In this document: positions 1 to 18,173 of the stretch, piece after piece
How the letters are laid out: every line of letters starts with the position of its first letter
Numbering within the stretch: position 1 is the stretch's first letter
Virus record (IMG/VR): IMGVR_UViG_3300035703_000103
Coordinates: 1 to 58,451 of that record
Source: a virus
Taxonomy: Duplodnaviria; Caudoviricetes
Length of the DNA stretch: 58,451 bases
Direction: 5' to 3' (one strand)
The notes under the pieces: model-generated
Databases searched by the model: none
What the model saw: only the letters and a program-made list of their open reading frames with translations
What the model was told of the DNA's origin: nothing
Made by a program: the position numbers and the translations under genes

Positions 1-5
1 ACCAA

Positions 6-3000
6 ATGGCCGAGGCCATGATCACGCAGATGAAGGACAACCTGGTGTGGCTGCACAACCAGTGGCGTCCTGAACTGCGCGAGCGGTCCCGACTCTGGTA
101 TGTGGGTGGGAATCGAATCTCACACCGCATGGCTTCGCGGTTTAGGACCGAGCCCTGGCGTGTGGCCGCCGTGATTGCGGCGACCAGCCCTCAGAAGGAC
201 TGGTTCCAGAACGTCTCTTTGGCCGAGCGCATTCTGGAGGCTGTGGTCAACAACTCGCAGATGGTCTGGACGGCGCAGATGACCGAGACGGTCAACTCCC
301 GCGACTGGGGCGGCAAGGAGTCGCGCGATCTTGGGTTCACGCCGCGCAATGAAATCTCTCGCCTGCAGGGCAAGACCTTGCGTGATCTGTACGAACCTCA
401 GAATCCGCAGTCTCTTTTGGATATGGCGGTATGGGTTCGCGCTTGGGATGAGACGTACAACCCCCGCATGGCCCGGGTGATCTCGCCTGAAGGCAAGTTC
501 ATTGATGAGTTCGACTCGACCAAGGACGGGCGTCCAATCGGCCTGCGTTGGCAGAGTTTTGCCACCATTGCCAAGACGCTGGACATCCTGACTGCGCCTG
601 ATCGGGCGACAGTGTCTGCCATGATCGGCTCGAACCATAAGGTTCGCTCGTTCTACAACAACATCATCGCGCCGTTTGATGATGAGGACGTGACCATCGA
701 CACCCATGCCGTGGCCGCCGCTCTGATGCGTCCTCTGGGGTCGTCAGCCACCGAGGTGGCTCACAACTTTGGCACCAACGAAAAGGGGATGCCGGGACCG
801 AAGAACAGTGCCATCACGGGACTTTTCGGCACCTACCCGATCTACGCTGAAGCCTATCGCCGTGCGGCCCGCGAGGTTGGGGCGCTTCCCCGTGAGATGC
901 AATCCATCACTTGGGAAGCGGTGCGCGGCCTGTTCCGTCCAGAGCAGAAGAATGAGAGAATCAAGGGCGAGGCAGACCGCATTTGGCGCGAAGTCTCTGA
1001 GGGGGAACTCGATGTCAACGAAGCGCGGCAGCAAATCTCTGGCCTGGTTGGTGGCATCCAAGACCCCGCCTGGGTCAGATCCCCTGCTGGAAGTAATGAA
1101 GCAGCGCGGGATTCCTCTTACGCAGGAGGAGTACCTGAAGATGGCGTACCCGGAAGGGGTGCCCAACCCGGTGCCGCCAGAGGTGATGGCCGAGATGCCG
1201 GCGCAACTCCGGCAAGCCTGAGTCGCGGGCGACGAGTCACGCCCAGCCCTGACTCCGCAAACTTCAAGCGGTGGAGCGGTAACGCACCGCTGATCACCTC
1301 CGCAGCAGCGGTTGACCATGTCTTCAAGACGGGTCAGAAGGTGGTGCTAGAAGGTTTCCACGGCACCGGTCGAGGCGACCGTGTTGGCACCGTGTTCCAG
1401 CGCAAGCGCGCCACCTCCGGCCCGATGGCGTTCTTCACCAGTTCGCCCATGTTGGCCAGCTCCTACGCTCAGGGCAAGCCCGACACCAGCCGCGCACTGG
1501 AGGACAACCCGTTTGAGAGTTGGTTCAAGTTCAAAGGGAAGGGGATGCGAACGGCGGTCAACCTCGACCGCGCGTGGTACTTCCTTGATCAAGAGAGCAA
1601 GGCCAAGATCGCCAAGCGGATGCCTGACATTCGCACGGACGATGACGGCAACATCGTCTACGAAGAGGGCGGCGGCGGCCTTGGCAACTACGACTGGGAA
1701 CTGAAGCAAACCAAGTCGGCCTACCTTCGCGAGGGTAACCCGCTGAAGGCGGCCGTTGAATCTTGGTTGAGCAGCGGCGCCATCTACGGCGACGAGGGCC
1801 GTTTCCGCCAGGTGCTGCGCTTGGCCGGCTTCCCGACGGATGCGCTGGAGTACGACAACCCGCAGGAGACGTACCCGTTCGTCTACAAGGTCTATGTCTC
1901 CATGCTCAACCCGCTGGTGACCAGCGACATTCCGAAGGAAGTGGACGATGCTTTGCGCGCGGCGGCTGCAAAGGACCGCAGCAAGGCCAAGTCACAGTTC
2001 GGCGTGGACTCTTGGGACAAGAACACCCGCACGCTCAAGGAGTGGGTGGGCGAGTATCTGAACCCATCCAACGGGGACAACCGATACGTTTGGACGAGCA
2101 TCCCTGACAAGGTGACCGAGGTCTTCAAGAGCCTGGGTTATGACGGGATCATCGACTACTCGGGGAAGAACGGTTCCACCGAAGTCGCGCCGGTCTACAT
2201 CCCGTTTGAAGAGGGTCAGGTCAAGAGCGCCATAAGCAACAGCGGCGAGTTTGACCGCAGCAAGAAGGACATCCAGGCCAGCAGATCGCGTGAGCGCCTA
2301 CTGTCAATGCCTGCGGTGCCGGTGAGTCCGCTACCTGATGGTATGGCTCTTGGTGATCTTCGTGTCTTGGCTAGTGAGCGGTATAAGGCCGCCGCCAAAC
2401 TTGGCCCCGTCAAGATGATGGATGACCGCGCCGTGCTGCTGACATCGGTCGGGATGAAGAAGTCGCGCAGCCACAGCGCCGACAAGCGGGTGCTGGAATT
2501 GATGGGCTCAATTCGAGAGGTGCTTGGTGCAGCAGAGCCCGTGGCTTCGATTCCGCATCAGCAGGAGAATCCAGGCGACTCAATCCGCGCGTGGCACTAC
2601 TACGGCGCGAAGGTGGATATCGATGGCGAGGAGGCGTTTGCCAAGCTCGTTGTGCGCGAGTCGGTCAACGGCGAGATTTACTACGACACCGACCTGTCTG
2701 GCGTGGAAGATATCAGCGGTCGTGCTGGTGACGCTGCCCGATCCAAAACCGGGGCGGCAGCCGTTTCCGCTGACAAGAGAACTCTAGCCGATCTTCTGGG
2801 CTCAGGCAATCTTGGGAGTGAGGTTGAGTTGAGCCGCGGCCGCTCCGACATCGACCTATGGGGGCAGGCCGGAACCAAGTCGGCTGACTCACTACAGGCC
2901 CTCGCCGATTGGGGTGGGAACAGTATTCTTGGTGACCCCAAAACTGGCAAGCCTGTTGTTTGGTGGGCTTATCGCAGGGCCGGCAGCAAGTCGCGCCTTG

Positions 3001-6000
3001 ACCCAATGCCTTACCCCGACAACGGAATCTATGGCCTGATCGTCACGCCGCTTGGAGTGCAGGCCCGTTTGGACATGGATTCTCCGCAGTCGTGGATCAA
3101 CGAGGCCAATGACTCGGATGAGTATGTCCGCCCGGTGCCAGTCATCATTCGTGGATCGGAAGTGGTGACGGATGATCAACTATTCGACCTGACACAGTCC
3201 AACCCCGGCAAAACCAACGGTCAGATTGCCGCCTCACAAGACATCGCGATGGTGGAGTTGGAAAGCCTGGCTTCCAATCACAAGATCGTTCTCAACCCGG
3301 CTAATGTCATTGAGTTGCGCGGTCCATTACTTGCGCTGATCAACGACGCTGGCAACACCCTGCAGCGTTCTCCTACTGATTACGCCTGGGTGTTCAATGG
3401 GTACGACACCTTGAATGTTGATTCAACCGTGATTACGGAGGATGGGCCTGAGTTGCCGGATGTCAGCTTGAGCCGCGGGCGCGATTCCATGCCGCCCCGC
3501 TTGTACTTGGTCGGGCCGGAACTGGCTGACTCGGCGCAGGGCACGGAAGACATGCCGCGCAGCGCGCAGGATCAGGATGCGCCCCGCCGGACATTCGGCC
3601 TTCGCGGTAAGAGCACGTTCCCTTCGCGGGCTGAAGTGAACTCTATGTCCCGCGAGGAGTTGATCGACTTCCTGCAGGATATGGACCCCAACGGGGACTA
3701 TGCCGATCCTGATCCCGACCCGGATGTGCGCCTGTACCAGACCGCCAGGGGCTGGAACGTGGAGTACAACGAGTACGACGACCCGGGTGAATTCGACTCC
3801 TATGAGAAGGCGTATCGGGCCTACAACGAGGCCAGGTATGCGAATGCCGAGAACCCTCCGATGACGCTGGATCAGGCGCGGGATGCTGCGCTGACGATGC
3901 TGCAGGAGAGCGTGTGGCCGGAGGGCGGCGGCGAGGTGGTGCAGGCGCGGTTTGGAAGGCCGGACATCACGAAGTCCTCTGGCCGTACCACCAGCGCCCT
4001 TGATCTGATCGCCAAGCGCGACGAGATGGGGCGCCTGAAGTTCGGCCTGGGCAGCAAGGCTTACTCCATCGTGGCCGAGATTGCCGGCAATGTGCTGGAT
4101 CGGGTGCGGATGAAGCCCATCTCCGAAGACCTCGCTCGGGCCATGCTCAAGATGAAGGTCGCCATTGAGAAGGCGCAGGAGCGCACGGTGGATGTGGCCA
4201 AGTCCATGAGCGAGTTGGACCCGGCCGAGCGGCAGATGATCTCGGATGTGATCGAGCAGGAACTGACCGCAGGCGTGGTGCCCCCGACTCGGGTTCTGCA
4301 GATCGCGGCGACCATTCAGGGAATCATGTCCGAGCAGTCCAAGGAACTGATTGATTTGGGCATGCTGCGCCAGGAAGACGCCGACCGTTGGGACGGTCGC
4401 TACATCCCGCGCTTCTACGAGCAGAAACTGGGCGAAGAAGCATCGGCCTGGATGAAGGCCGTCAAGCAGTTGTTCACCCGCCCGCGCGCGATGATGGGCA
4501 TCAAGGGCAGCAACCTCAAGTCACGCGGGCTGTGGGAGACGATCCCGGCGGACGAGTTGGATGCTTGGCTGGATGAGGGTTGGGAAGTGCGCGACCCAGC
4601 CTATGACGAGGCCACCTCCACCGAGGTCCGTATCTGGCGCGACTACACACGCCCGGAGCGGGACAGCATGGGCGAGATCCGGGACTCTATGTTCCGATTC
4701 GTCATGGGCTACCAGAAAGCCCAGCGCGACATCGCCTTGGGCAAGATGTACCGGCACATCAACCAGACGATGTCCAGCAGCGCCGAGAAGGATGGATTCG
4801 TTCGGGTGCCGGACTCCAGCATCGACGGCGTGGACGTACCGTCCTACGGCGAGCTGGCCGGCAAGTGGGTTCCGCGCGAGGTGCTGGATCACCTGAGTGC
4901 CTTTGACGCCACGCAGCGCAACGCCCTGACCCGCTTCTACCAGAAGGCCCTGTCCTACTGGAAGGAGGGCAAGGTGGTGCTCAACCCGGTGAGCCACGCC
5001 AACAACATCTTGTCCAACTTGACGATGGCGCACTTCGCAGGCGTTTCATACTGGGACACGCCCAAGTACATGGCCGCGCTGCGGGATATGCACAAGGGCT
5101 CGCCCATGTTGGACGAGGCCAAGGACGCGGGCCTGTTCGTGGGCTCGTTCAACCAGGCCGAGATCGCCAAGGCCCTGCCCGAGCAGTTGAAGGTGCTGGC
5201 CGGCAAGACAGAGAGCAAGGCCGGCAAGGCATTCGACTCGGTCTTCACTTTCTTCACATACTTCCTTCGCAAGCCGATGAACGCGGCCTACGAGCTGGAG
5301 GATCAGTTCTTCCGCTACCTGCTGTACCGCGACGCCCGCACCCGCGGCATGGGGCCTGAGGACGCAGTGCGCCACTCGCAGCGGCACATCTTCACCTACG
5401 ACGATCTGCCGCAGGGTGCTCGCGTGGTGCGCGACACGGCGCTGCCGTTCTTCGCTTACACCTACAAGGTGATCCCGGTCCTGGCCAAGACGGCGCTGGA
5501 GTACCCGCATCGGTACGCAATGCCGGCCGCGATCCTGTACACGATCAATGCACTTGGCTTTGCGATGGCTGCTGGCGACGAGGACGACGGCTGGATGGAC
5601 ATCATCCGGCGCTACTCATCTGACGCCGACTTCCGCAAGAAGGTCAGCGACCTCGAGGGGCAGGAGCGCAAGGACTTGCCGCCGTGGATGCAGGGCGCGA
5701 GTGCTTCGCTTGGCACGCCTAAGGCGATCCGCCTGGGGCAGGATGACAAGACCGGGCTGCCGGTGTACCTGGATGTCAGCAAGATCTTCCCCGGCGGCGA
5801 CCTGTTGGACGTGACGGCCAACGCAGGCGGCCTGCCGTGGCTGCAGCCGCTCACGCCTTCAAGTCCTGTGCTCAACGCGGCCGCGGCTCTGTTCTTCAAC
5901 CGCGACCCGTTCTACGGCAAGGACCTGGTGGACAAGAACGACACGCCGGCAGAGGCTGCAAAGAAGCGCGCCGAGTGGGCCTGGAAGCAGTTCTCTCCGG

Positions 6001-6356
6001 CAATCACGATCTACAACTACCACTGGGACCGCGGCATGAACGTCCTGGCCAACGCCACCGGAACGGACATCCTGGGCTACACCGGGCGCGGCAAGGACGG
6101 CATTCCGGTGGATGCGATGTACGCGGCCATGCAGACCTTCGGCATCAAGGCGCGGCCCATCGACCTGGAGAAGTCAGCCGACATCAACGCCAACAAGGAG
6201 AAGTCCATCATCCGCTCCATTGAGGCAGAAATTTCGCAACTCAAGCGCCTGGAGGCCAAGGGCGCAATGACCTCGGAGAAGGCTCAAAAGCAGATCGACC
6301 TTGAGAACGAGAAGATCCAGCGAATCCGAGACAAGAAGTTGGAGTCAGTTGAATGA
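6..6356 (+). CDS. C-terminal 2116 aa of giant polyvalent (DarB/ddrB-like, probably virion-injected) protein; probably continues from ORF 53444..58451 across the circular junction
   Basis: Modules separated by LSRGR-like linkers. (1) A domain with SPQKDW..N / KVRSFYNNI / VTIDTHA / MQSITWEAVR motifs, HhH-glycosylase-like (tentative). (2) ADP-ribosyltransferase ART-PolyVal-like: FHGT..FFTSSP..YA..VYVSMLNPL..GYDGII..QVKSAISNSGEFD. (3) LPD3-like: WHYYGAKV.IDGE...KLVVRE..NG..YYD. (4) Helical C-terminal region typical of these proteins. Confidence 0.85.
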   Translation: MAEAMITQMKDNLVWLHNQWRPELRERSRLWYVGGNRISHRMASRFRTEPWRVAAVIAATSPQKDWFQNVSLAERILEAVVNNSQMVWTAQMTETVNSRDWGGKESRDLGFTPRNEISRLQGKTLRDLYEPQNPQSLLDMAVWVRAWDETYNPRMARVISPEGKFIDEFDSTKDGRPIGLRWQSFATIAKTLDILTAPDRATVSAMIGSNHKVRSFYNNIIAPFDDEDVTIDTHAVAAALMRPLGSSATEVAHNFGTNEKGMPGPKNSAITGLFGTYPIYAEAYRRAAREVGALPREMQSITWEAVRGLFRPEQKNERIKGEADRIWREVSEGELDVNEARQQISGLVGGIQDPAWVRSPAGSNEAARDSSYAGGVPEDGVPGRGAQPGAARGDGRDAGATPASLSRGRRVTPSPDSANFKRWSGNAPLITSAAAVDHVFKTGQKVVLEGFHGTGRGDRVGTVFQRKRATSGPMAFFTSSPMLASSYAQGKPDTSRALEDNPFESWFKFKGKGMRTAVNLDRAWYFLDQESKAKIAKRMPDIRTDDDGNIVYEEGGGGLGNYDWELKQTKSAYLREGNPLKAAVESWLSSGAIYGDEGRFRQVLRLAGFPTDALEYDNPQETYPFVYKVYVSMLNPLVTSDIPKEVDDALRAAAAKDRSKAKSQFGVDSWDKNTRTLKEWVGEYLNPSNGDNRYVWTSIPDKVTEVFKSLGYDGIIDYSGKNGSTEVAPVYIPFEEGQVKSAISNSGEFDRSKKDIQASRSRERLLSMPAVPVSPLPDGMALGDLRVLASERYKAAAKLGPVKMMDDRAVLLTSVGMKKSRSHSADKRVLELMGSIREVLGAAEPVASIPHQQENPGDSIRAWHYYGAKVDIDGEEAFAKLVVRESVNGEIYYDTDLSGVEDISGRAGDAARSKTGAAAVSADKRTLADLLGSGNLGSEVELSRGRSDIDLWGQAGTKSADSLQALADWGGNSILGDPKTGKPVVWWAYRRAGSKSRLDPMPYPDNGIYGLIVTPLGVQARLDMDSPQSWINEANDSDEYVRPVPVIIRGSEVVTDDQLFDLTQSNPGKTNGQIAASQDIAMVELESLASNHKIVLNPANVIELRGPLLALINDAGNTLQRSPTDYAWVFNGYDTLNVDSTVITEDGPELPDVSLSRGRDSMPPRLYLVGPELADSAQGTEDMPRSAQDQDAPRRTFGLRGKSTFPSRAEVNSMSREELIDFLQDMDPNGDYADPDPDPDVRLYQTARGWNVEYNEYDDPGEFDSYEKAYRAYNEARYANAENPPMTLDQARDAALTMLQESVWPEGGGEVVQARFGRPDITKSSGRTTSALDLIAKRDEMGRLKFGLGSKAYSIVAEIAGNVLDRVRMKPISEDLARAMLKMKVAIEKAQERTVDVAKSMSELDPAERQMISDVIEQELTAGVVPPTRVLQIAATIQGIMSEQSKELIDLGMLRQEDADRWDGRYIPRFYEQKLGEEASAWMKAVKQLFTRPRAMMGIKGSNLKSRGLWETIPADELDAWLDEGWEVRDPAYDEATSTEVRIWRDYTRPERDSMGEIRDSMFRFVMGYQKAQRDIALGKMYRHINQTMSSSAEKDGFVRVPDSSIDGVDVPSYGELAGKWVPREVLDHLSAFDATQRNALTRFYQKALSYWKEGKVVLNPVSHANNILSNLTMAHFAGVSYWDTPKYMAALRDMHKGSPMLDEAKDAGLFVGSFNQAEIAKALPEQLKVLAGKTESKAGKAFDSVFTFFTYFLRKPMNAAYELEDQFFRYLLYRDARTRGMGPEDAVRHSQRHIFTYDDLPQGARVVRDTALPFFAYTYKVIPVLAKTALEYPHRYAMPAAILYTINALGFAMAAGDEDDGWMDIIRRYSSDADFRKKVSDLEGQERKDLPPWMQGASASLGTPKAIRLGQDDKTGLPVYLDVSKIFPGGDLLDVTANAGGLPWLQPLTPSSPVLNAAAALFFNRDPFYGKDLVDKNDTPAEAAKKRAEWAWKQFSPAITIYNYHWDRGMNVLANATGTDILGYTGRGKDGIPVDAMYAAMQTFGIKARPIDLEKSADINANKEKSIIRSIEAEISQLKRLEAKGAMTSEKAQKQIDLENEKIQRIRDKKLESVE
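1012..1221 (+). CDS. Overprinted 69-aa protein nested in +1 frame of giant gene (MSTKRGSK...DPLLEVMKQRGIPLTQEEYLKMAYPEGVPNPVPPEVMAEMPAQLRQA)
   Basis: RBS-like GAGGGGG upstream of ATG 1012; globular-looking sequence; host frame here is G/A/R-rich linker with atypical A/T-ending codons. Confidence 0.7.
   Translation: MSTKRGSKSLAWLVASKTPPGSDPLLEVMKQRGIPLTQEEYLKMAYPEGVPNPVPPEVMAEMPAQLRQA
2711..2775 (-). ncRNA. Putative antisense small RNA with tRNA-Gln(UUG) anticodon stem-loop mimic
   Basis: Minus strand: outer stem UGUCAGCGG/CCGCUGAUA; inner CCCGG-UUUUGGA-UCGGG (5-bp stem, 7-nt loop; 2737-2753); begins about 6 nt after a -10 box. Confidence 0.55.
2781..2809 (-). promoter_or_regulatory. Antisense sigma70-like promoter inside giant gene
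   Basis: Minus strand TTGCCT (2809-2804), 17 bp spacer, TAGAGT (2786-2781). Confidence 0.55.
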
Positions 6357-8128: not shown

Positions 8129-8174
8129 TGCATCGGACAGTCAATATCCATGCGGCCTGGGGCGCGTTCGTTCG

Positions 8175-8387
8175 TTATTTTTTCGTTTCCCATTCCATGA
8201 CTTCGGACAGAAGCCACTTGCCGGTGCTGTCCGGTTTTGGGAAGCCTTGGGTCATCATACGCGGCAGGGTGTTGCGGTGGATTCGCAGCCGATCACACAC
8301 CTCGGCGCGGGTCAGGCGTGCGCCTTGCACCTGGGCCAGGTTCATCACCGCACGGGTGAGTAGGTCGATCTTCTCTTCGACGGTCAT
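8175..8387 (-). CDS. Excisionase/AlpA-like HTH protein
   Basis: LTRAEVCDRLRIHRNTL..GFPKP..GKWLLSEV; upstream of integrase. Confidence 0.8.
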   Translation of the reverse strand: MTVEEKIDLLTRAVMNLAQVQGARLTRAEVCDRLRIHRNTLPRMMTQGFPKPDSTGKWLLSEVMEWETKK

Positions 8388-8617
8388 ACTTGCTCCTTAA
8401 CCTTGATCGGTCGCCACGGCTTGCCCTGCAAAGAGGCAGACCGCCCGGTGGTGATGTTGAACCAGATGCCGTCCCGGTACTCTTCGATTGATGGCGCGAG
8501 GTGGTCGGCGTACAGACGTTCGTACAAGCCGTTCCTGGTCGGCTTGGTCGTCCGGTTCCAATCGTCGCGTTTCATTCGGTTATCCACGCGGCACCCCCGG
8601 ACGGCGCGGCTTGTCAT
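8384..8617 (-). CDS. Hypothetical early protein (true start may be downstream, MKRDDW)
   Basis: Overlap-coupled to xis. Confidence 0.5.
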   Translation of the reverse strand: MTSRAVRGCRVDNRMKRDDWNRTTKPTRNGLYERLYADHLAPSIEEYRDGIWFNITTGRSASLQGKPWRPIKVKEQV

Positions 8618-8689
8618 CGCTGAAGATGATGAGCGCGGCCATGACTACGATAATCGCAGGAGCGATCAGGAAGCCTTTGAGGATGTCTT

Positions 8690-8914
8690 TCATGTCCTGT
8701 TCCTGATGGCTTCAGCACAGGCGTAGCCGTGGCTTTCGTGGTCGATGTCGGATTTATCGCTGTAGTCCTCACACACCTTCGCGCATTGCTCTCTTTCGTG
8801 CTCGGCAACAAGGGCGGCGAAGCGTTCCAACATGAAGTAGTCAGTATGTTTTTCTTTGGTCGGGTGATTAAACCCAGCCTCTAGCGCCATGCAAAGGATG
8901 TCAGATTTGGTCAT
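8690..8914 (-). CDS. Hypothetical phage protein
   Basis: LERFAALVAEHEREQCAKVCE..CAEAIR motif common in phage small proteins. Confidence 0.7.
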   Translation of the reverse strand: MTKSDILCMALEAGFNHPTKEKHTDYFMLERFAALVAEHEREQCAKVCEDYSDKSDIDHESHGYACAEAIRNRT

Positions 8915-9144
8915 GTCTGCTCCCTTGCCTTGAGCATTTCATCTGCCATGTGCCACGCTGTAGTCGCATAGATCACATCGTCGCCGTCACCTAGGCGCGA
9001 CCAATCTCCGCTGTGCGCCATCAGACCTTGCAGGGCTGCGGCGGCGAAGTAGTCCCTGAGCGATAGCCCTTGCGCGTGCTCTGCCGGCGTGGTGCTGTGC
9101 GTGTGCAGCACGCTTGGGAATGCGGGGCCGCCGTTATTGCTCAT
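8911..9144 (-). CDS. Conserved hypothetical phage protein
   Basis: GGPAFP..GLSLRDYFAAAALQG..ADEMLKARE motif. Confidence 0.8.
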   Translation of the reverse strand: MSNNGGPAFPSVLHTHSTTPAEHAQGLSLRDYFAAAALQGLMAHSGDWSRLGDGDDVIYATTAWHMADEMLKAREQT

Positions 9145-9430
9145 CACCATCCTCCAAGTCCACCACCTTGTCTGCAATACACGCGATGACATCCTCCAGG
9201 CGCACGACCGTATAGCCGTCAACCATCCCCCTGCGGTGCAGCGTTTGCACACGGCGCAGGAGGTTCACTTGCATGAGCCTCAACACGGCCAGTTGCTTCA
9301 AAAGTTCCTCGCCGTGAGTGATGATTTCGCTTGGGTCAACCTGGTCACCCAGCCTGAGCCTGGAGATGATTTGCTGCATTTGCTTTCGGCCCACGCCGGG
9401 GCGTTGTTCTGCGATCAATGAATTCGCCAT
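9134..9430 (-). CDS. Hypothetical protein
   Basis: Fits coupled leftward operon. Confidence 0.55.
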   Translation of the reverse strand: MANSLIAEQRPGVGRKQMQQIISRLRLGDQVDPSEIITHGEELLKQLAVLRLMQVNLLRRVQTLHRRGMVDGYTVVRLEDVIACIADKVVDLEDGDEQ

Positions 9431-9557
9431 CGCCTAGATCAATCGTTGTCCACCGATGAAGGTTGGCGCACTCTCTGCGCCTGACAACCGCGCCATTCGC
9501 ACGCCGCCTCGTCTCCTTCACCAGCACCCATGTGTTTCCACAAACTGCACACTGCAT
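9345..9557 (-). CDS. NrdR-like zinc-ribbon protein
   Basis: MQCxxC..VKETR..RRRECANLHRWTT. Confidence 0.65.
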   Translation of the reverse strand: MQCAVCGNTWVLVKETRRRANGAVVRRRECANLHRWTTIDLGDGEFIDRRTTPRRGPKANAANHLQAQAG

Positions 9558-9647
9558 TACCAGAACTTCACAACTACGAAACCCAAGACCGCAACAGCGG
9601 CCACCGCTAAAACGAACAACCGGCCCAATACCTCTAGGCCATCGTCT

Positions 9648-9800
9648 TCATCGCGCATTCAGAATCTCCCTGACCAACTGGCGCACCTCTTCAGACACCG
9701 CCCAGCCAAGATCGTCCGGGTCTAGCAGTCGCAACAAGAAGCGGCGCAACTCAACATTTCGGGCGGCCAGTGCTTCGGCGGTGGACTTGTAGTCGGTCAT
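9648..9800 (-). CDS. Hypothetical protein
   Basis: LLRLLDPDDLGWAVS motif; ATGA coupling to MTase stop. Confidence 0.55.
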   Translation of the reverse strand: MTDYKSTAEALAARNVELRRFLLRLLDPDDLGWAVSEEVRQLVREILNAR

Positions 9801-11545
9801 GCCAACTGCTCCTTGATCCTCTTGCCGATCCAATGGACCACGGGAACTGCCCAGCTGTTTCCGAGGGCCTTGTACATAGGTCCGTCTGGCGGCGGCGTCT
9901 TGCCGCGCCACTCCACTTGCATCAGATAGTCGTCAGGGAAACCCTGCAATCTCGCGCACTCGACGGGCGTCAGGCGGCGCACTTGCATGGAAACCGGCAC
10001 GCAGAAGTCCAGCTCGTTCGCGTTGCCTGCGGGTCTGTTGAGGCCACCGCCATTGGCCGCGAGAGTCCCCGCGACGGGTGACATATCGGTCGGCCGCATC
10101 ACCACGGCGTGCTCTGCGTTGGATCGCGCAAGGGTGTGGCACGGATCGCCGGGATTCCTGTTCTGCTTGTTGACCGGCGCAGTGATGTTGAAGAAGTCGT
10201 AGGTGACGGGCTGCATCACGATGGGCAGATCGCACCCGTTGTCCTGCTTGGCGTGCTGAGTCGGGGCGACTGTGATTTCCTTGACGCGGCCGTCTTGGTC
10301 GTGGCGCTCGTAGCACACGGGCTGCATGACTGCCGTCGTGGTGCTGTTCTCCACGCCTGATGGAATGCGTGAGCGCAGACTGCTGCTGACCTCGGTGTAC
10401 GAAGCCACCTGTGCTGTGCCGTCAGTACCGTGGAGGGTCACGCCAACTGGGACGGCCACCGCCCCAACACCCATGCCATCACGGCCTCCGTTGGGGGTGA
10501 GCAGCGCATTGGCCGTGCCGTCCTGCCGAGCCTCTAGATCGCGCCCATCTCCACGGCCACGGATCGCCAGGATGTAGGGCTGCATCACCGCCTGCCCCTG
10601 CGCCTGGTCGAGCGTGTGCGCCACTTCATGCGCTACACCGTGGCCGTTGGCGCTGGTGTTGGCCGTACGGACGGCATAAGCAACTGCCGCAGTCGCGTTC
10701 TCATTGGCCCCTATGGCATGGCACAGATCGGTGCTGCTGATGGGGTCCTGGGTGGGGTGGAAGGCAACTGGCTGCGCCACGGCAAGCATTCCATCGGCAC
10801 GACCCGCAACTCGCATCGTTGGGGCGATGTTTTCAGTTGCATCCCCACCATCATCATTTCTACTGAAAGCCACCGGCACCAACGGCGTACCGCGCCCACT
10901 TCCATCTTCAGAGGCATCAAATCCTTCGCCGCGCAGGGTATGGGCTACATAGGTCGCTTCGTTGGGATCAAGCCTTCCCGTTGCCGTATGCGATGCCGTC
11001 AGTGCTCGAGCGCACTCCCCCCCCCCCTCCGATTCCGAGGGGCACGGGGACGAAGTTGTCGGAGTCCTCTCGGTGACTGCTGTTAGCGCGAGCTCTAAGG
11101 CTTTTGGCAATGTCTTGCCCCTCTTGCTGGCCCGACGAAGGATTCCCGCGCAGGCTTGAGCCGACAGGAAAAAGCGGTCCGGTAAAGAGCCTGTCTCCAA
11201 GACTTCGGACAACGTCGGCTTCGGTGTCGAAAAGCACGGTGCGGGGATCGAGCCGATGTTCATGCCCGACAGCAACGACAAAAACGCGCCGTCTTCGCTG
11301 CGGGACAAAGCCCTGAGCGTCGAGGACACGCCAAGCGAGTCGCCGTCTGGGTCCATCAACCAGACCCGCGTTTGTCCATCCGCTCCTCGAAACGAGGGGG
11401 GCCTCACATCCCGCCAGGCCGGCGAGGAAGCATCCAAATGCGTTGTCCTTGGTGCTGAGAACTCCGGGGACGTTCTCCCAGAAGACGATTGCGGGGTCAT
11501 CGCCTCGGGCGCGTCGAACATCGTCAATTGCATTTGCGATCTCAC
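9797..11545 (-). CDS. C5 cytosine DNA methyltransferase C-terminal part (variable region, motifs IX/X) fused to alternative-frame beta-like peptide
   Basis: RRLTPVECARLQGFPD and YKALGNSWAVPVV; N-terminal part LSEVLETG..FFLSAQACAGILRRA..RGK.LP. Confidence 0.8.
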   Translation of the reverse strand: MRSQMQLTMFDAPEAMTPQSSSGRTSPEFSAPRTTHLDASSPAWRDVRPPSFRGADGQTRVWLMDPDGDSLGVSSTLRALSRSEDGAFLSLLSGMNIGSIPAPCFSTPKPTLSEVLETGSLPDRFFLSAQACAGILRRASKRGKTLPKALELALTAVTERTPTTSSPCPSESEGGGECARALTASHTATGRLDPNEATYVAHTLRGEGFDASEDGSGRGTPLVPVAFSRNDDGGDATENIAPTMRVAGRADGMLAVAQPVAFHPTQDPISSTDLCHAIGANENATAAVAYAVRTANTSANGHGVAHEVAHTLDQAQGQAVMQPYILAIRGRGDGRDLEARQDGTANALLTPNGGRDGMGVGAVAVPVGVTLHGTDGTAQVASYTEVSSSLRSRIPSGVENSTTTAVMQPVCYERHDQDGRVKEITVAPTQHAKQDNGCDLPIVMQPVTYDFFNITAPVNKQNRNPGDPCHTLARSNAEHAVVMRPTDMSPVAGTLAANGGGLNRPAGNANELDFCVPVSMQVRRLTPVECARLQGFPDDYLMQVEWRGKTPPPDGPMYKALGNSWAVPVVHWIGKRIKEQLA

Positions 11546-11840
11546 AGAAAGTCAGGGAAAGGTTGCCGCGGTCATCGTTGAGTGACTGACGCAGACCGGC
11601 CACGGAAAACGCTTGGCATGGGGTTCCACCGCAGAACAGATCGGGCGCTTCAATCTCTCCAGACCTGATCCGATCAGGCAGCACGCTCATGTCGCCCAGG
11701 TTGGGGACATCCGGGTAGTGATGCGCCAGGACTGCTGAAGGGAACGGCTCAATCTCAGCAAGCCATGCGGCCTTCCAGCCAAGCGGGTGCCACGCCACCG
11801 ATGCGGCTTCTATCCCGGAACAAACAGAACCGAATCTCAT
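10968..11840 (-). CDS. dcm: C5 cytosine DNA methyltransferase N-terminal part (motifs I-VIII), truncated by G11 frameshift
   Basis: FGSVCSGIEA, GGTPCQAFS, WENVPG, VPQRRRRVFVV. Confidence 0.9.
   Translation of the reverse strand: MRFGSVCSGIEAASVAWHPLGWKAAWLAEIEPFPSAVLAHHYPDVPNLGDMSVLPDRIRSGEIEAPDLFCGGTPCQAFSVAGLRQSLNDDRGNLSLTFCEIANAIDDVRRARGDDPAIVFWENVPGVLSTKDNAFGCFLAGLAGCEAPLVSRSGWTNAGLVDGPRRRLAWRVLDAQGFVPQRRRRVFVVAVGHEHRLDPRTVLFDTEADVVRSLGDRLFTGPLFPVGSSLRGNPSSGQQEGQDIAKSLRARANSSHREDSDNFVPVPLGIGGGGGVRSSTDGIAYGNGKA
11017..11027 (-). repeat. G11 homopolymer at MTase frameshift point
   Basis: 11 C on + strand; G10 restores one 680-aa ORF. Confidence 0.85.
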
Positions 11841-12088
11841 GCCGCCTCCCGCCACGCCTGCTGCAGCAGATCAAACTGATGCCCCGGCCTGGGCTTTCCT
11901 TTGCCACGCATTGCGGGCCTCGCCACGGCTGCAGGCGCAAGGCCCAAGGCGCGCAACTTGATGTGCAGCGTGGTTTCGCTCATACCGACCGCCGGGGCGA
12001 TGGCCGTGACCGACTCGCCTGCGGCTAGGCGCTGGCAGACCTCGCCGTAGATGGCCCAGGTCAGGCGGCGCTTTTGTGGACGGATCAC
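11837..12088 (-). CDS. Small HTH-like protein
   Basis: GESVTAIAPAVGMSETTL. Confidence 0.6.
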   Translation of the reverse strand: MIRPQKRRLTWAIYGEVCQRLAAGESVTAIAPAVGMSETTLHIKLRALGLAPAAVARPAMRGKGKPRPGHQFDLLQQAWREAA

Positions 12089-12279
12089 TGCTGCCCCTCC
12101 GCAGCTAGGACCGCACGCAGACGCTCAATGCGGGTGGAGTTGTAGGCGGCAAGAGCCTGGGCGTACTCCATCGCAGACTGCGCCTGCAGCCGTTCGCGCT
12201 CGGCTTGTGCAAGCTCGGCCGCGGCCAGCTCAATGGCGGTCTTTTGCCGGAACACGCCCTTGACCATTTCACTCAACAT
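12085..12279 (-). CDS. Hypothetical coiled-coil protein
   Basis: MLSEMVKG..AQSAMEYAQA..RIERLR; coupled operon. Confidence 0.6.
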   Translation of the reverse strand: MLSEMVKGVFRQKTAIELAAAELAQAERERLQAQSAMEYAQALAAYNSTRIERLRAVLAAEGQQ

Positions 12280-12607
12280 CCACAGTCTCCCTTTTCCGTT
12301 TTGCTTGGCTTGCCCGCTCAGATCCCTCGTCAGGGCGGGTGCGCCTGTTGCGCCGCTCCGGTTCAAATAACTTGGCATCCCGGCCACACGGCCCGCTGTA
12401 TCGCGCATCAATGCAGGTGCTGTACTCACGCCGACTCCCCTTGCTTCTTTTGCACACCATCACGCGGTTGATTTCCATCTTTCGCCGCGCCCCACCAACC
12501 GCTTCTGCGTAGTGCCTGCAGGCCATGCAGGTCTTGCGCTCCTCGCCCCAGGTGTATTCGGGCAGGGTCCACTGCGGATCGGCGATGTAGACGCGGCGCC
12601 AGGTCAT
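12269..12607 (-). CDS. Hypothetical Cys-rich protein
   Basis: CxxC and CG..AKLFE motifs. Confidence 0.55.
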   Translation of the reverse strand: MTWRRVYIADPQWTLPEYTWGEERKTCMACRHYAEAVGGARRKMEINRVMVCKRSKGSRREYSTCIDARYSGPCGRDAKLFEPERRNRRTRPDEGSERASQAKRKRETVDVE

Positions 12608-12804
12608 GCCGCCTGTTCAATCGCACGCTGTTGAGCGTTCAGTCGGTCGCGCAGGCGCTCGGCGTTTTCTTGGAAGAACTGGTACTCACCACAAGTTGTG
12701 CCGGTGAATCCATCAACCACGATGAACATCCCGGCGCTGAACATGGATCGTTCAAAGTGAACGAAGTACCGGGCCTTGGGATCGTTTTGGAATGCGAGAG
12801 TCAT
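12604..12804 (-). CDS. Hypothetical protein
   Basis: ATGA-coupled. Confidence 0.55.
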   Translation of the reverse strand: MTLAFQNDPKARYFVHFERSMFSAGMFIVVDGFTGTTCGEYQFFQENAERLRDRLNAQQRAIEQAA

Positions 12805-13415
12805 GCCGCCACCTTTGAAAGCCGCTCAACCATCTGATCAACCTCGATCAGGAACTGCTCAACCTCAAACTCCAGTTCCGCAATGAGCTTGTCGTCGCGC
12901 TTGATGCGCGTGACGAACAACTGCAGATGAGCCGGGAAGCGGTCGTCGTAGCTGACGAAGTCGCACCACCTCCTGCCGGTGCAAGCCATTTGCCACTGCA
13001 TCTGCGTGATGTACTTGCCATCAGGCTTGCCCGTGAGCAGGGTGTTCATGTGCGTGGCGCTGTTGGGCACCTTGATCTCGAGCAGACCATCGGTGTTGAT
13101 AACCCCGTCCGGCGAAGCGCCCGACATCTGCAGTCGGGGGTGCAGGATCAGTCCCACCTCCTCCACGATCTCGCCACTCATGGCCTCGTAGGCCGCTCGG
13201 GCCACCGGCTCCATCTCCGTGCCGCGCTGCATGGCCGCGTTGGTGAAGGACTCCTGCCGGCGCCCGGTCATGCGCTCCAGGACCAGTTCTGCCAAGTAGT
13301 TCTGGCGGGAGGTTGAGTACCCGGACTTGGTCTTGGCAATCACATCGGCCACGCGGGAGGCGGTCACCTTGCCCAGGCGCGCAGCGAACCATTCATCTGT
13401 GCGCTGGTCCATCAC
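12801..13415 (-). CDS. YqaJ/lambda-exonuclease family protein
   Basis: QRTDEWFAARLGKVTAS, ASPDG, LEIKVP, Y..QMQWQM. Confidence 0.95.
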   Translation of the reverse strand: MMDQRTDEWFAARLGKVTASRVADVIAKTKSGYSTSRQNYLAELVLERMTGRRQESFTNAAMQRGTEMEPVARAAYEAMSGEIVEEVGLILHPRLQMSGASPDGVINTDGLLEIKVPNSATHMNTLLTGKPDGKYITQMQWQMACTGRRWCDFVSYDDRFPAHLQLFVTRIKRDDKLIAELEFEVEQFLIEVDQMVERLSKVAA

Positions 13416-14173
13416 TTGACCTCCGCATCGACGACGTTTGCCGCGGCGATGGCTGCGTTGAATGCATCCCGGCGCTGCAGAACCAGGTCTTTCAACTCCT
13501 CATAGCCCGAGACATCACGGGCCGCATTGGCCAGGGCGCACTGCGCCTTCCAGATGCGCTGCAGCTCATCCTTGTCGGGAGCGGCGAGCACCAGGGCCTT
13601 GGCGGCATCCAGGTCGAAGGTGATGATTTCCCCGGTGTCGGAGTTGATGACCTTCGGGGCGACGGATTCAACGATGCGCTCGGCCTCGTCCTGCTCGTAG
13701 ATACCCACGAAGCCAAACGCCAAGCGAGCGCACTGAATCATGCTTTTGTGGCGGAGCATCCTCTTGGGGTGCGACTGCCAGGGGCCGGTGCCGCGCTTGC
13801 ACTCTTCCATCCATTCCGTGACCTTCACCGGGTGAGCGCGGTCCTTGCGGTAGATGATGCAGGTGCAGGACTCGTTGTCCTGCTGGAAGTCCATGCCATC
13901 AAACTGCGGGTGCGTGTTGATGATTCGGCTCCAACCGTCCACGCCGACCACCGGCACGATGCCGTTTGACTTGTCAGGGAAAGCGTAGATTTCCTTGGTC
14001 CAAGGATTCAGGCTGTACTGGTTGGCGACCACCAGCAGCGCGGCCATCTGCGCATCGGAAACCTGGCCCTTGAATGCGGTGGCTTTCAGTACGCCAACCA
14101 ACTCCTCGGGCTCTCCGCCCAGGTTGAGCGCTGCGGCCAGCTTGCTGGCGTTGGCAAGAACGATGTTGCTCAC
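13412..14173 (-). CDS. bet: Phage recombinase Bet/RecT (single-strand annealing)
   Basis: LNPWTKEIYAFP, VVGVDGW, WQSHPKRMLRHK..QCARLAFG. Confidence 0.95.
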   Translation of the reverse strand: MSNIVLANASKLAAALNLGGEPEELVGVLKATAFKGQVSDAQMAALLVVANQYSLNPWTKEIYAFPDKSNGIVPVVGVDGWSRIINTHPQFDGMDFQQDNESCTCIIYRKDRAHPVKVTEWMEECKRGTGPWQSHPKRMLRHKSMIQCARLAFGFVGIYEQDEAERIVESVAPKVINSDTGEIITFDLDAAKALVLAAPDKDELQRIWKAQCALANAARDVSGYEELKDLVLQRRDAFNAAIAAANVVDAEVK

Positions 14174-14613
14174 TTAGATGCTCCCCTCTTGTTCCATGCG
14201 GAAATGTTTGCCCGCGCTGCGGCGCGCTGCTTTTCGGTAACCTTCTTTAGTCCGGTTTCAAATGCATGCCGAATGTTTTTGCTTGCGGTGATCCACTCCA
14301 GGTTTTCAAGGCGGTTGTCGGACTTGATGCCGTTGATGTGGTTAACCTGAAGTGGATCGGCGGCGCCGCCGGAAAAGGAAATCATTACGACCCGATGCAC
14401 CTTTGGGTACTTCCTAATGCCATCCTTGAAAAGGGTCACATACTGATATCCGCACTTGTCGGTGCGGGGCCGCATCCATCGGCCAGTTCCTCTGGACTTG
14501 TTGGGGTATGCCCAAACTCGACCGTCTGCAGATGCTGCATAGCGGCCCTCGTACGCGGGAACTGGCGCAACCAAGACTCCATCTATAAATTGCGCGGTCC
14601 ATATCTCGCTCAT
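14170..14613 (-). CDS. NUMOD4-HNH endonuclease
   Basis: YEGRY..S..GRV; VHRVV..VNHINGIKSDNRLENLEW. Confidence 0.9.
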   Translation of the reverse strand: MSEIWTAQFIDGVLVAPVPAYEGRYAASADGRVWAYPNKSRGTGRWMRPRTDKCGYQYVTLFKDGIRKYPKVHRVVMISFSGGAADPLQVNHINGIKSDNRLENLEWITASKNIRHAFETGLKKVTEKQRAAARANISAWNKRGASK

Positions 14614-14825
14614 TTCTTCCTCTCAAAGATGGCCCGAAGCACTCGGGCGATCAAGTTCTTGTAGTAAGACGCCCGGGTGATCGGGCGGGTGCGTCGGTAA
14701 GGGCCGGTGATGGCGCCCGTGTCAAGCAATCGTTGAATCACCACGGCGCTGCCTCCCAGTTCGGTGCGAGCCTGGGCTTGCGTGTCTTGCGAAACGCTTT
14801 GCCCTTGAAGGTTGGAAATGGCCAC
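14610..14825 (-). CDS. Hypothetical protein
   Basis: Coupled to HNH start. Confidence 0.4.
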   Translation of the reverse strand: MAISNLQGQSVSQDTQAQARTELGGSAVVIQRLLDTGAITGPYRRTRPITRASYYKNLIARVLRAIFERKK

Positions 14826-14960
14826 GCTCCCTCCCGTACAGACTGCGGAATCAGACGATGCCCATCCACCACAGCGCCACCGGCAGGAAGACGCACATGG
14901 CCAGGAACAGCGCGCCGAGCAAGTCCATCGCGCCCTGCCGGCGCTGCTCGTATGTCGTGC

Positions 14961-15164
14961 TCATGCGATTGCATGGTTGGCCAACACGTCGTCTTCGATG
15001 CGGCTGATCGTTTCCGCGTCGAGCTGGCCGGTGATGTCAATGCCACCGACCCAGACCTTGAGGTTGGCCACCGAATCACCGGCGCCGGGCTCGTCGTCGC
15101 GGTCGGCATAACCGGGCTTGATGTCGAACTCGACTTCCACTTCAAGGGTGATTTCGAGGTTCAT
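14961..15164 (-). CDS. Acidic hypothetical protein
   Basis: Coupled operon. Confidence 0.6.
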   Translation of the reverse strand: MNLEITLEVEVEFDIKPGYADRDDEPGAGDSVANLKVWVGGIDITGQLDAETISRIEDDVLANHAIA

Positions 15165-15403
15165 GCGGCCCCCTTGATGCGCTGACGCATGGCAGAAATT
15201 TGGCGCTTACAGGCGATGTCGTAGTCGCTCATGCACCGGACATATGCGGGCACGAAAGCTTGGATTACGGACATCCAGAATGCGCGTGACCGCTCGGACT
15301 TGGCCCGATTCATACGGTTCATGGCCGCAACATTGGGGTTTTGGCACCGCTCAGAGAGAGCTGCAGCGGCGAATACGACCCTGACAGGAAGAACTGCTTT
15401 CAT
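15161..15403 (-). CDS. Hypothetical protein
   Basis: ATGA-coupled start MKAVLP. Confidence 0.5.
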   Translation of the reverse strand: MKAVLPVRVVFAAAALSERCQNPNVAAMNRMNRAKSERSRAFWMSVIQAFVPAYVRCMSDYDIACKRQISAMRQRIKGAA

Positions 15404-15591
15404 GCCGCCACCTCGCTGCGCTGCTCGGCCAGAACTTCGTTGATCGCGTTGGCCAGGGCCTGAGCCTCGTCGGCAGTCAGGTATGCGATCTGGTGGCCGC
15501 TGCGCGACCAAACGGCAAACTGGATGCCGTCTCCGTTGTCATTGACGTGCAGGTTCTGCCCGTCTGCCGTGTCTACTGTCCTGTCTGCCAT
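15400..15591 (-). CDS. Hypothetical protein, first gene of leftward early operon
   Basis: RBS GGAGAGG upstream. Confidence 0.65.
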   Translation of the reverse strand: MADRTVDTADGQNLHVNDNGDGIQFAVWSRSGHQIAYLTADEAQALANAINEVLAEQRSEVAA

Positions 15592-15633
15592 CTGCCTCTC
15601 CTTGTTGCGCTTGGTGCGCTGTTGATGAAGCAG

Positions 15634-15673
15634 ACTGTAGCACCGCTACTTCTCAAAAACAAGAGCAATGCTT
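15634..15673 (-). promoter_or_regulatory. PL-like promoter with two repressor operators
   Basis: Minus strand TTGTTT-17-TACAGT; palindromes GTAGC-ACC-GCTAC (15637-15649) and GAGC-AAT-GCTT (15663-15673) resemble those at PR. Confidence 0.65.
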
Positions 15674-15706
15674 GAGAAATAGTTACTAGAGGAAACCCTG
15701 TGGGAG

Positions 15707-15734
15707 AAAAAAGCCACCCGTTGGGGTGGCTCTT
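15707..15734. terminator. Intrinsic terminator (mainly minus strand)
   Basis: AAAAAA-GCCACCC-GTTG-GGGTGGC-TCTT. Confidence 0.75.
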
Positions 15735-15759
15735 GTGGGGGTGGCAAGTGAGTTAACGA

Positions 15760-15788
15760 TTGACGCTAATAACGCCGGCCGTTATCAT
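15760..15788 (+). promoter_or_regulatory. higBA promoter with operator
   Basis: TTGACG-17-TATCAT; palindrome ATAACG-N5-CGTTAT 15769-15785. Confidence 0.75.
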
Positions 15789-15794
15789 TGCGGC

Positions 15795-16073
15795 ATGATC
15801 CAGAGTTTTGAGTGCAGCGACACCGAGGCCTTGTTTGCTGGTCGCCGCGTCAAGCGCTTCGTCAATATCGAAGGTGTCGCCATCCGCAAGCTGCAACAAC
15901 TCCATGCGGCCACGACTCTGGAGTTCATGCGTGTGCCCCCTGGGAACCGCCTGGAGGCGCTCAGCGGTGACCGCAAGGGCCAGCACAGCATCCGCATCAA
16001 CGACCAATGGCGTGTGTGCTTCGTTTGGGCTGACGGACACGCGCAGCGCGTTGAGATCACGGACTATCACTGA
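15795..16073 (+). CDS. higB: HigB (RelE/ParE family) toxin
   Basis: MIQSF..DTEALF..PPGNRLEALSGDRKGQHSIRINDQWRVCF. Confidence 0.95.
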   Translation: MIQSFECSDTEALFAGRRVKRFVNIEGVAIRKLQQLHAATTLEFMRVPPGNRLEALSGDRKGQHSIRINDQWRVCFVWADGHAQRVEITDYH

Positions 16074-16084
16074 CAGAGGCAACC

Positions 16085-16390: not shown

Positions 16391-16397
16391 TGACGCG

Positions 16398-17470: not shown

Positions 17471-17495
17471 AGGGTAATTCTTGCGCGAAAGATGT

Positions 17496-17535
17496 GGAGC
17501 GATGCTTGACAAGCAAAAAGTTGCTCCGCTACAGT
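17496..17535 (+). promoter_or_regulatory. PR promoter and operators
   Basis: TTGACA 17506-17511, TACAGT 17530-17535; imperfect palindromes GGAGC-GAT-GCTTG and GTTGC-TCC-GCTAC. Confidence 0.75.
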
Positions 17536-17542
17536 AGTGGAC

Positions 17543-18170: not shown

Positions 18171-18173
18171 TGG

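Follow-up and report, generated by a model that had tools for sequence, protein, structure and literature searches.

Small genes in the +1 frame of a giant phage polyvalent-protein gene as candidate partners of the domains encoded beside them

How might a phage make a chain of potentially harmful enzymes, joined in one protein, without harm to the cell that produces it? The question is raised by a giant gene of the polyvalent-protein class in IMG/VR virus record IMGVR_UViG_3300035703_000103, which was analysed whole (58,451 bases, here called the window; classed as linear, with an estimated completeness of 76%). A first-pass annotation had noticed three small open reading frames (ORFs) in the +1 frame of the gene's linkers, together with an antisense RNA, and had proposed that each is an antidote to a neighbouring effector domain. 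From comparison with related loci, we consider it rather probable that the giant gene is made up of successive two-gene cassettes, fused by read-through, in which small partner proteins hold the domains in the producing cell. The features on which the argument turns are as follows.

53444..58451, + strand: giant polyvalent-protein gene, 5' part (ORF 53444..58450, open to the 3' end of the contig)
1..6356, + strand: giant polyvalent-protein gene, 3' part (ORF 3..6356, entering from the 5' end; stop at 6354-6356)
55317..55523, + strand, +1 frame: ORF A, a 68-amino-acid (aa) acidic protein, with AGGAGG 5 nucleotides (nt) before the ATG
55523..56701, + strand: ddrB-ParB plus DdrB-like module, preceding ORF B (Pfam ddrB-ParB; phrog_5143)
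56664..56858, + strand, +1 frame: ORF B, 64 aa, putative divergent member of a small-protein family whose ORFs begin where the DdrB-like module ends
3..1013, + strand: DUF7178 module, preceding ORF C (Pfam; confident AlphaFold2 model)
1012..1221, + strand, +1 frame: ORF C, 69 aa, from a widespread unnamed family of small candidate partner genes of DUF7178

The three ORFs were present exactly where they had been annotated, with ribosome-binding sites, at 55317, 56664 and 1012. Each lies in the +1 frame and begins with ATG, 5-7 nt downstream of a motif resembling a Shine-Dalgarno (SD) sequence. Taken without comparative data, the presence of such ORFs is not evidence. Seven +1-frame ATG ORFs of at least 64 aa were observed, against 6.99 ± 1.80 in 500 synonymous-codon shuffles, and three ORFs of at least 60 aa with both SD and ATG, against 1.54 ± 1.22, a number that 20% of the shuffles reach. 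Such counts tell against a gene at each ORF and are what would be expected of chance frames in GC-rich DNA, with a low divergence due to recent recombination or to DNA or RNA signals (recombination linkers for module shuffling, or internal promoters). That account could also draw on module swaps between the window and a relative, which are real, and on the conserved blocks at ORFs A and B, which are wider than the ORFs and of which the second adjoins a swapped segment.

The way in which the ORFs have changed speaks differently. The main pairwise comparison was with L003, a contig from IMG/VR related to the window at about 95% nucleotide identity. Over the giant gene, 557 substitutions separate the two, 418 of them at codon position 3. 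The expected numbers of position-3 changes over ORFs A, B and C were 9.7, 9.15 and 6.2, and none was observed over any of them, so the suppression of synonymous change that had been proposed as a check on the nested ORFs was borne out. An unbiased scan placed the largest position-3-free gaps of their blocks over ORF A (55234-55585) and over ORF C (1010-1271), and over ORF B the stretch between 56458 and 57066, where the block ends, is likewise free of position-3 changes. All seven substitutions inside ORFs A (four) and C (three) are silent in the +1 frame, as opposed to 70 of 550 (12.7%) outside the three ORFs (P = 5e-7, or 4e-6 if an adjacent pair is counted as a single event). Between the window phage and L003, each of the small proteins has 100% sequence identity. 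Over the ORFs, 51-58% of the main-frame residues are Gly, Ala, Pro or Ser, compared with 33% gene-wide (96th-99th percentile of 69-aa windows); by composition, the main frame here reads like linker and the +1 frames like proteins. On these comparative data, all three +1 ORFs appear to be more than chance and to behave like genes: the substitution pattern shows frames apparently under purifying selection at the protein level, and we infer that they are translated.

ORF C gives the broadest view. A profile of the main-frame DUF7178 module identified 80 loci in IMG/VR, and with the addition of L007 the set comprised 81 viral loci. A tblastn search with ORF C (E ≤ 1e-3) gave matches in 76 of them, 75 in the +1 frame relative to the domain; among the remaining five, four carry a weaker match (E 0.005-0.11) in the same place and frame, and one is without any. 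The ORF is intact at 50 aa or more in 72 loci, and in four it is interrupted near the start, an effect of sequence extraction. Three layouts occur among the 76: free-standing, with the ATG about 20 nt before the stop of the DUF7178 gene (19 loci); nested, within the final 200 nt of the domain gene (37 loci); and inside giant genes, where the long frame continues for 0.7-3.7 kb (20 loci). Across 55 unique sequences, the variability of the small frame at codon positions 1, 2 and 3 is.383/.294/.546, with the same order in all layout classes; position 2 of the small frame varies least, and therefore the wobble position of the long frame is the least variable.

The family extends beyond viral records. 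Searching bacterial contigs, one genome per species, with the DUF7178 profile gave 39 loci in metagenome-assembled genomes (MAGs) and genomes of many phyla. A hidden Markov model (HMM) of the C family matched at 19 of the 38 loci that include the downstream region: 15 matches follow the domain directly in the +1 frame. Of the other four, two stand free in a different frame, one lies at a distance on the opposite strand, and one, in L199, shares the frame of a C-terminal DUF7178 fragment. The co-occurrence of ORF C with its upstream domain, on which the idea of paired modules depended, is therefore strong (76/81 viral and 19/38 bacterial-genome loci). In a public protein set the family comprises 59 clusters called by other pipelines, all unnamed or "hypothetical" and without Pfam assignment.

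The open +1 frames could in principle be reached by programmed ribosomal frameshifting, giving truncated products that end in the small domain. Both frames are open, and in L199 the small segment is in frame with a DUF7178 fragment, as that account would allow. It sits poorly with the start signals, however: SD-like 4-mers precede 34 of 54 unique C-family ORFs, which start with ATG, while only 9.4% of positions drawn at random from these loci have one, and where the small gene is free-standing or separated, the main gene ends before a frameshift could serve. In an analysis that included no search for slippery sites, we regard frameshifting as very improbable.

The partner domain itself appears to be new. 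The AlphaFold2 model of DUF7178 scored a predicted local distance difference test (pLDDT) of 90.1 and a predicted template-modelling score (pTM) of 0.87. No match was found among PDB folds (best E 1.2, template-modelling (TM) score ≤ 0.21) and no relative among PDB sequences (best E 0.71), and its matches in BFVD were uncharacterised phage proteins only. We are confident, on the strength of this model, that DUF7178 represents a new fold without a solved relative. The region had earlier been called glycosylase-like; it corresponds to DUF7178, and the lytic-transglycosylase entries of the PDB, at E about 2 and TM ≤ 0.21, were rejected as relatives.

The window DUF7178 module (39-row alignment) and ORF C (41-row alignment) were then modelled as a complex. 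Three runs scored 0.72, 0.72 and 0.73, and the best of three controls scored 0.23; 58 of 80 solved complexes reach the pass mark, as do 2 of 110 mismatched pairs, counts that hold only roughly for custom alignments. At least 81% of the contacts were common to the runs, and the pLDDT of the partner was at least 78. Neither chain has a solved relative, which makes structures known to the predictor an unlikely source of the pass. In the model, the conserved core residues 20-28 and 40-49 of small protein C lie on domain helices around residues 127-139 and 185-213; on the side of protein C, the predicted interface takes in residues 8-28 and 40-49. Modelled alone, protein C (pLDDT 70) begins with 20 disordered residues and continues as three or four short helices. 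The complex model supports binding of small protein C to the DUF7178 domain encoded just upstream.

ORF B had to be followed by a different route. A profile of the ddrB-ParB/DdrB-like module identified 70 related viral loci, and BLAST with ORF B across them found only the copy in L003. By eye, many of the loci carry a protein-like +1 ORF that begins at the module end, and a B-family HMM was built from 12 of these. It matched in 23 of the 70 loci (the 12 seeds and 11 others), always at the module-end junction, and in the Bacillus phage Dartukuta at the same junction (E 1.6e-17). By arithmetic on coordinates, every match is +1 to its own domain match. Where the domain gene stops, the small gene is free-standing (L116, L159 and L117); in L116 a Phage_Mu_F gene lies downstream of this pair, a head-morphogenesis context. 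The variability of the small frame by codon position (.587/.504/.570) is near saturation, with the wobble position of the long frame lowest. Fifteen clusters of the family, unnamed, are present in the public protein set.

The copy in the window is less secure. ORF B scored 6.8 bits with the first HMM and 11.7 bits with a 22-member HMM, a score reached by none of 1000 residue shuffles, and its membership of the family is weak as judged from these scores. A tract of about 600 nt (56459-57056) has no substitution relative to L003; it is much wider than ORF B and adjoins a swapped segment. With no substitutions over ORF B, the pair of window and L003 says nothing on its frame, and the tract may reflect recent recombination or a further constraint. 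The family is also absent from 47 of the 70 loci, mostly members of a clade further removed, whose main frame resembles that of ordinary protein. The proposed co-occurrence of ORF B with its module accordingly stands for the family, which recurs at one junction in 23 of 70 loci, and falls short for the weak window copy and for the 47 loci without it.

One further element precedes ORF B.

56493..56521, + strand: sigma-70-like site, 9/12 consensus match, about 145 nt before ORF B (1 observed against 0.2 ± 0.5 in shuffles)

By its consensus match, the site hints at an internal promoter and separate transcription of ORF B, and no more.

Two annotated phages were inspected at this junction. The cultured phage vB_BspP_Dartukuta carries an unannotated B-family ORF (L089, 7133-7300) in the +1 frame of DARTUKUTA_57, a 4203-aa gene annotated as "putative methyltransferase", and so offers a possible experimental system. 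In the annotation of phage P1 (L002), iddB (4207-4605) is nested antisense in ddrB, and hxr (6630-6938) overlaps the end of ddrB by 11 nt; the B-family HMM had no significant match in the P1 locus (best E 7.4), and iddB and hxr were unmatched.

Direct searches with the small proteins returned little. Small proteins A, B and C and six further members of the C family had no significant Pfam or PHROG match, A, B and C had no tblastn match at E ≤ 1 in GenBank phages, and the ESM Atlas gave nothing usable. For proteins as short and diverged as these BLAST lacks sensitivity: the Dartukuta copy of B, missed in GenBank, was later recovered with the B-family HMM.

Comparison of loci thus shows that the C and B families recur, each at the same junction, and occur nested, overlapping and free-standing. 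Homologues with their own start and SD, protein clusters called elsewhere (59 + 15), the seven of seven silent substitutions set against a background of 12.7%, and variability that follows the small frame are hard to reconcile with chance frames. On these sequence comparisons, chance is essentially excluded for C and B, and as an account of the nested ORFs as a whole we hold it to be most improbable.

We return to the reading in which cassettes were joined by read-through. An ancestral cassette would have consisted of a large domain gene and then a small partner gene overlapping its 3' end in the +1 frame. The giant gene would have arisen by stop loss, with the long frame reading across the small gene one register off, using that region as a linker rich in Gly, Ala, Pro and Ser, and then entering the next module. 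The small gene would retain its own SD and ATG and be made by internal initiation on the late mRNA. Each small protein would bind the domain made just before it and might keep that domain inactive, or competent for transfer, in the producing cell until packaging; it would then be stripped off at packaging or ejection, leaving the domain active in the newly infected cell only. The small proteins would on this scheme be "holding" partners, immunity-like or chaperone-like. Immunity and chaperoning are indistinguishable from sequence, with immunity-like holding slightly ahead. ORF A would be a younger, lineage-specific gene with the same layout, and an antisense RNA has no part in the scheme. That an antidote is made in the producing cell and not packaged, as the first-pass annotation supposed, is pure conjecture. 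By analogy with P1 Dar, and with the packaging and injection of polyvalent proteins proposed in the available part of Iyer, Burroughs, Anand, de Souza & Aravind 2017 (PMC5512222), the giant protein may be packaged and injected.

How well does each ORF fit this scheme? For C, and for B with its weak window copy, the second frame is open and the protein is conserved in diverged relatives; for A, conservation extends to one 95%-identical relative. Substitutions follow the second frame, and all three ORFs have their own start signals. The layout of toxin and immunity genes, in which a small gene lies downstream and is co-inherited, is found for C, in part for B, and not for A, and the effector-plus-partner cassette of the first-pass annotation holds to the same extent.

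Several observations count against the favoured scheme, and some of them suit a milder one, in which the small proteins are permanent subunits, or chaperones for folding or packaging, of domains that are not toxic to the producer. They would then be comparable to secretion chaperones, or to the helper proteins that P1 Dar proteins require for loading into heads. The complex model and the tight co-occurrence of C fit that alternative equally well. The modelled interface contacts only 4 of 48 invariant DUF7178 residues (P63, Q64, K191 and K213), and therefore blocking or capping of an active site is not indicated. To call DUF7178 an effector is an assumption, the domain being without known activity. 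In L199 (3881-4483, a contig from an Acidobacteriaceae MAG), an ORF of about 200 aa joins a C-family segment, in a single frame, to a C-terminal DUF7178 fragment; such a fused or remnant form would be as compatible with a subunit or a domain as with an antidote. The C family was not detected in 19 of the 38 bacterial-genome DUF7178 loci. The acidity of the family (median net charge -5.5) and the head-morphogenesis context in L116 also agree with a chaperone. On the other side are the disordered N-terminal 20 residues of C and the pLDDT of 70 for its lone fold, together with the free-standing and overlapping layouts, which are also typical of toxin-immunity pairs; none of these is a direct counter-argument. 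We regard subunits or chaperones as the unlikely, though serious, alternative to cassettes with holding partners.

ORF A raises the question of whether the embedded genes and the domains are linked at all. The absence of third-position changes over ORF A is the strongest pairwise signal of the three (none against 9.7 expected, P = 6e-5), its four substitutions leave the +1 protein unchanged while each alters the main-frame protein, and 58% of the main-frame residues over it are Gly, Ala, Pro or Ser. The conserved block is larger than the ORF.

55235..55584, + strand: conserved block around ORF A, 350 nt, the largest third-position gap in its 3.6-kb block

It reaches 82 nt beyond the ORF on the upstream side and 61 nt on the downstream side, and the low divergence could stem from recent recombination, which would leave the frame bias unexplained. 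Just upstream of the ORF A SD, a 9-nt direct repeat, CTGAGCAAT, occurs twice, 30 nt apart (window 55262-55300), and is a possible regulatory site.

Contigs of other sequencing runs bear on the block. Those of runs X1 and X2 show the same boundaries. Contigs of X2 (55154-55427) and X4 (55251-55403), from another study, show a single listed difference between 55235 and 55427, namely 55400 A>G, without effect on the ORF A protein; over the 80 nt that lead up to the block, X2 carries 8 substitutions and 21 gapped bases. At depths of 4-7, the X2 and X4 contigs offer only a hint in favour of ORF A. In run X1, which covers the region best and may be the source sample, the window and L003 alleles are present at similar depth over window 55100-57100, and two close strains coexist there; because X1 carries both alleles, it is not independent of the comparison between the window and L003.

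Beyond L003, no homologue of ORF A was found in GenBank phages, IMG/VR, metagenome contigs or a set of 5.8 billion proteins, and a jackhmmer search over 19,457 six-frame ORFs recovered its own copies only. A 478-aa protein of unknown family in L005 has a weak in-frame similarity (34% over 62 aa) and was not used. ORF A is absent from all 70 loci with the downstream domain and from the four of four loci that carry most of the upstream module (L094, L107, L160 and L161, the last two from a metagenome scan with that module). Of the two expectations set for ORF A, suppression of synonymous change was found, and co-occurrence with either flanking module was not.

These absences would be natural if the small ORFs were real genes unlinked to the flanking domains, such as accessory or anti-defence genes trapped by read-through fusion. 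Two other loci point the same way: L101 (2753-3001, 82 aa) and L105 (2783-2986, 67 aa) carry protein-like +1 ORFs that end at the ddrB-ParB start, over a Gly-rich main frame as at ORF A and without detectable homology to A or to each other. The junction before ddrB-ParB may be a hotspot for embedded small genes. The absence of B from 47 of 70 loci also agrees with unlinked genes. The C family is difficult to fit into that account, following DUF7178 in 76 of 81 viral loci over 40-99% domain identity and several phyla, and giving a complex model that passes its controls. As an explanation of the three ORFs together, we find unlinked genes improbable. ORF A itself is, from the comparisons made, quite probably a real embedded gene, young or recently acquired; a chance frame is a rather unlikely but not negligible account of it taken alone. 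It appears lineage-specific in these searches, and the support for it comes from close relatives.

The fourth proposed antidote fared otherwise.

2711..2809, - strand: claimed antisense structured RNA or tRNA mimic, not supported

The first-pass annotation had placed an antisense promoter and a tRNA-like RNA at 2809-2711, guarding the ART/LPD3 module. A stem-loop can be drawn, with a minimum free energy of -36.6 kcal/mol, and a weak 8/12 hexamer pair lies at the 5' end. The stability is ordinary (z -1.15; 24 of 200 shuffles fold as well; rank 48 of 190 antisense 99-nt windows in the giant gene). ARAGORN found no tRNA in the window, Rfam had no match at 2711-2809, and a promoter scan found no site at 2809-2850; there is neither a cloverleaf nor a model match, and stability and conservation are not above background. 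L003 differs at 4 of 99 bases (4.0%, against 3.5% for the block), two of the changes break pairs without compensation, and the substitutions follow the main frame. The claim was dropped, and we regard such an RNA as extremely improbable.

The remaining features of the giant protein are its other domains.

1836..2684, + strand: ART-PolyVal (1836-2252) plus LPD3 (2385-2684), Pfam
57917..57931, + strand: HELTH (HExxH) motif, possible zincin-like module; single occurrence, at aa 1492 of part 1

Four Pfam domains lie above the cut-off: ddrB-ParB (part 1, aa 695-846, E 3e-19), DUF7178 (part 2, aa 187-309, E 3e-23), ART-PolyVal (part 2, aa 612-750, E 3e-11) and LPD3 (part 2, aa 795-894, E 2e-11). The stretch after ddrB-ParB has 28% identity to P1 DdrB and 40% to gene 57 of Bacillus phage Dartukuta. 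Around HELTH there are sub-threshold zincin-type matches only (eCIS_core 13-14 bits, Peptidase_M48 13.9 bits). The earlier domain calls were therefore upheld for ddrB-ParB, ART-PolyVal and LPD3, while the glycosylase-like call was not; the HELTH motif is present, with its zincin matches below threshold. Several PolyVal-associated domains in one ORF of about 3.8-4.2 thousand codons, encoded by a phage (a virus record, with portal, tail-fibre, baseplate-like and integrase genes around), make the giant gene a member of the polyvalent-protein class.

Three observations concern the N-terminal region of the protein. A short motif, A/S-R-x-x-G-Y-[T/S]-x-x-E-[I/V]-x-D-[Y/F]-L-S, occurs twice at the N-terminus (window 53444-53590). 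A long hydrophobic stretch rich in Gly and Ala follows these repeats at aa 300-400, approximately. The N-terminal module is common to L094, L107, L160 and L161.

The portal, tail-fibre, baseplate-like, amidase and integrase genes around the giant gene identify the window as a temperate tailed phage. The giant gene lies after the tail genes and before the integrase gene, a virion context. The window has no end repeat, and the two parts of the gene join in a single reading frame of 3787 codons. L003 has one continuous 4189-aa ORF (8144..20713) across the corresponding junction, with 171 nt, or 57 in-frame codons (12648-12818), between the bases that match window 58451 and window 1. From this alignment, the gene crosses the contig ends, and 3787 aa is probably short by about 57 aa. 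The first-pass annotation was right to join the gene across the ends, and its length is what needs correction, about 57 codons being probably absent. Since L003 holds 171 nt between the two ends, the record probably represents either a circle that is almost closed or a permuted genome without a short piece.

Between the window and L003, two segments have been swapped: 57066-57617 (551 nt) of the window corresponds to 47 nt in L003 (11766-11813), and 2853-3963 (1110 nt) to 2649 nt in L003 (15671-18319), which hold an extra LPD3 and ART-PolyVal pair. At the 3' end of the giant gene, window 6177-6322 (146 nt) has zero substitutions relative to L003 within a block that is about 10% diverged, where the expectation is about 9.6 third-position changes. 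The segment gave no match in Rfam, and none of its alternative frames reads like protein; with the integrase gene directly downstream, it is a possible attachment or regulatory site.

What appears to be new is the presence of two long-conserved small-protein families, embedded in the +1 frame of giant phage genes and missed by annotation. Dozens of uncultured phages carry them, as do prophage-like loci across many phyla and a single cultured phage of Bacillus. Their presence would explain the Gly/Ala-rich linkers of polyvalent proteins, and suggests that such proteins are built by cassette fusion without loss of the partner gene. It may offer a handle on how a phage makes a chain of potentially harmful enzymes without harming the producing cell, and with a predicted binding partner the function of DUF7178 becomes testable. 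A bolder version, doubtful but worth stating, is that cassette fusion left antidotes overprinted in the linkers, made in the producing or lysogenic cell, bound to each domain and shed on packaging or ejection, so that arming of the protein would wait until the next host; in that case many hidden immunity families would exist across many bacterial phyla, those at the DUF7178 and DdrB-like junctions being the first two.

Annotation pipelines discard long same-strand overlaps. Such overlaps have been held to be nearly absent from prokaryotic genomes, according to the available part of bioRxiv 10.1101/724807. No paper on embedded genes in polyvalent proteins was found in a search that left subscription journals and supplements outside, and none naming DUF7178, which the supplementary domain tables of PMC5512222 might list differently. 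In the available text of PMC5512222, "overlapping" is never used and both uses of "nested" refer to a hairpin fold.

The giant protein resembles polyvalent proteins such as P1 DdrB and DarB in being a giant multi-domain protein of the late region, with ddrB-ParB, ART-PolyVal and LPD3 domains and a DdrB-like stretch, and in having modules that vary between close relatives, as between the window and L003; it differs in the small second-frame genes embedded at its module junctions. P1 iddB is a precedent for an ORF annotated inside a ddrB-type gene. Unlike the ORFs described here, it lies on the opposite strand, and the B-family HMM has no significant match in the P1 locus (best E 7.4).

Polymorphic toxin/immunity cassettes place a small cognate partner gene directly after a variable effector-type domain, and are shuffled. 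The present locus is alike in its order of domain and small partner, in its shuffling, and in its setting of a temperate phage and head packaging; MuF-fused phage toxins are mentioned in the available part of PMC9503650. It differs in that immunity genes there are separate and downstream, while here the small genes, whose immunity role is putative, as is any toxicity of the domains, are overprinted in the ORF. The small families match no Pfam, PHROG or named protein.

A similar layout is that of the Rz/Rz1 spanins of lambda-like phages, lysis proteins of the cell envelope, in which a small gene lies wholly within a larger one in the +1 frame, the products bind each other, and the same family occurs embedded, overlapped and separated. 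There is no sequence relation, the host gene here is a giant polyvalent one with three embedded genes in one ORF, and its long frame goes on for kilobases after each of them. The pair of DUF7178 and its small gene is nevertheless found in the same three arrangements, embedded, overlapping and separated, with the partner in the +1 frame.

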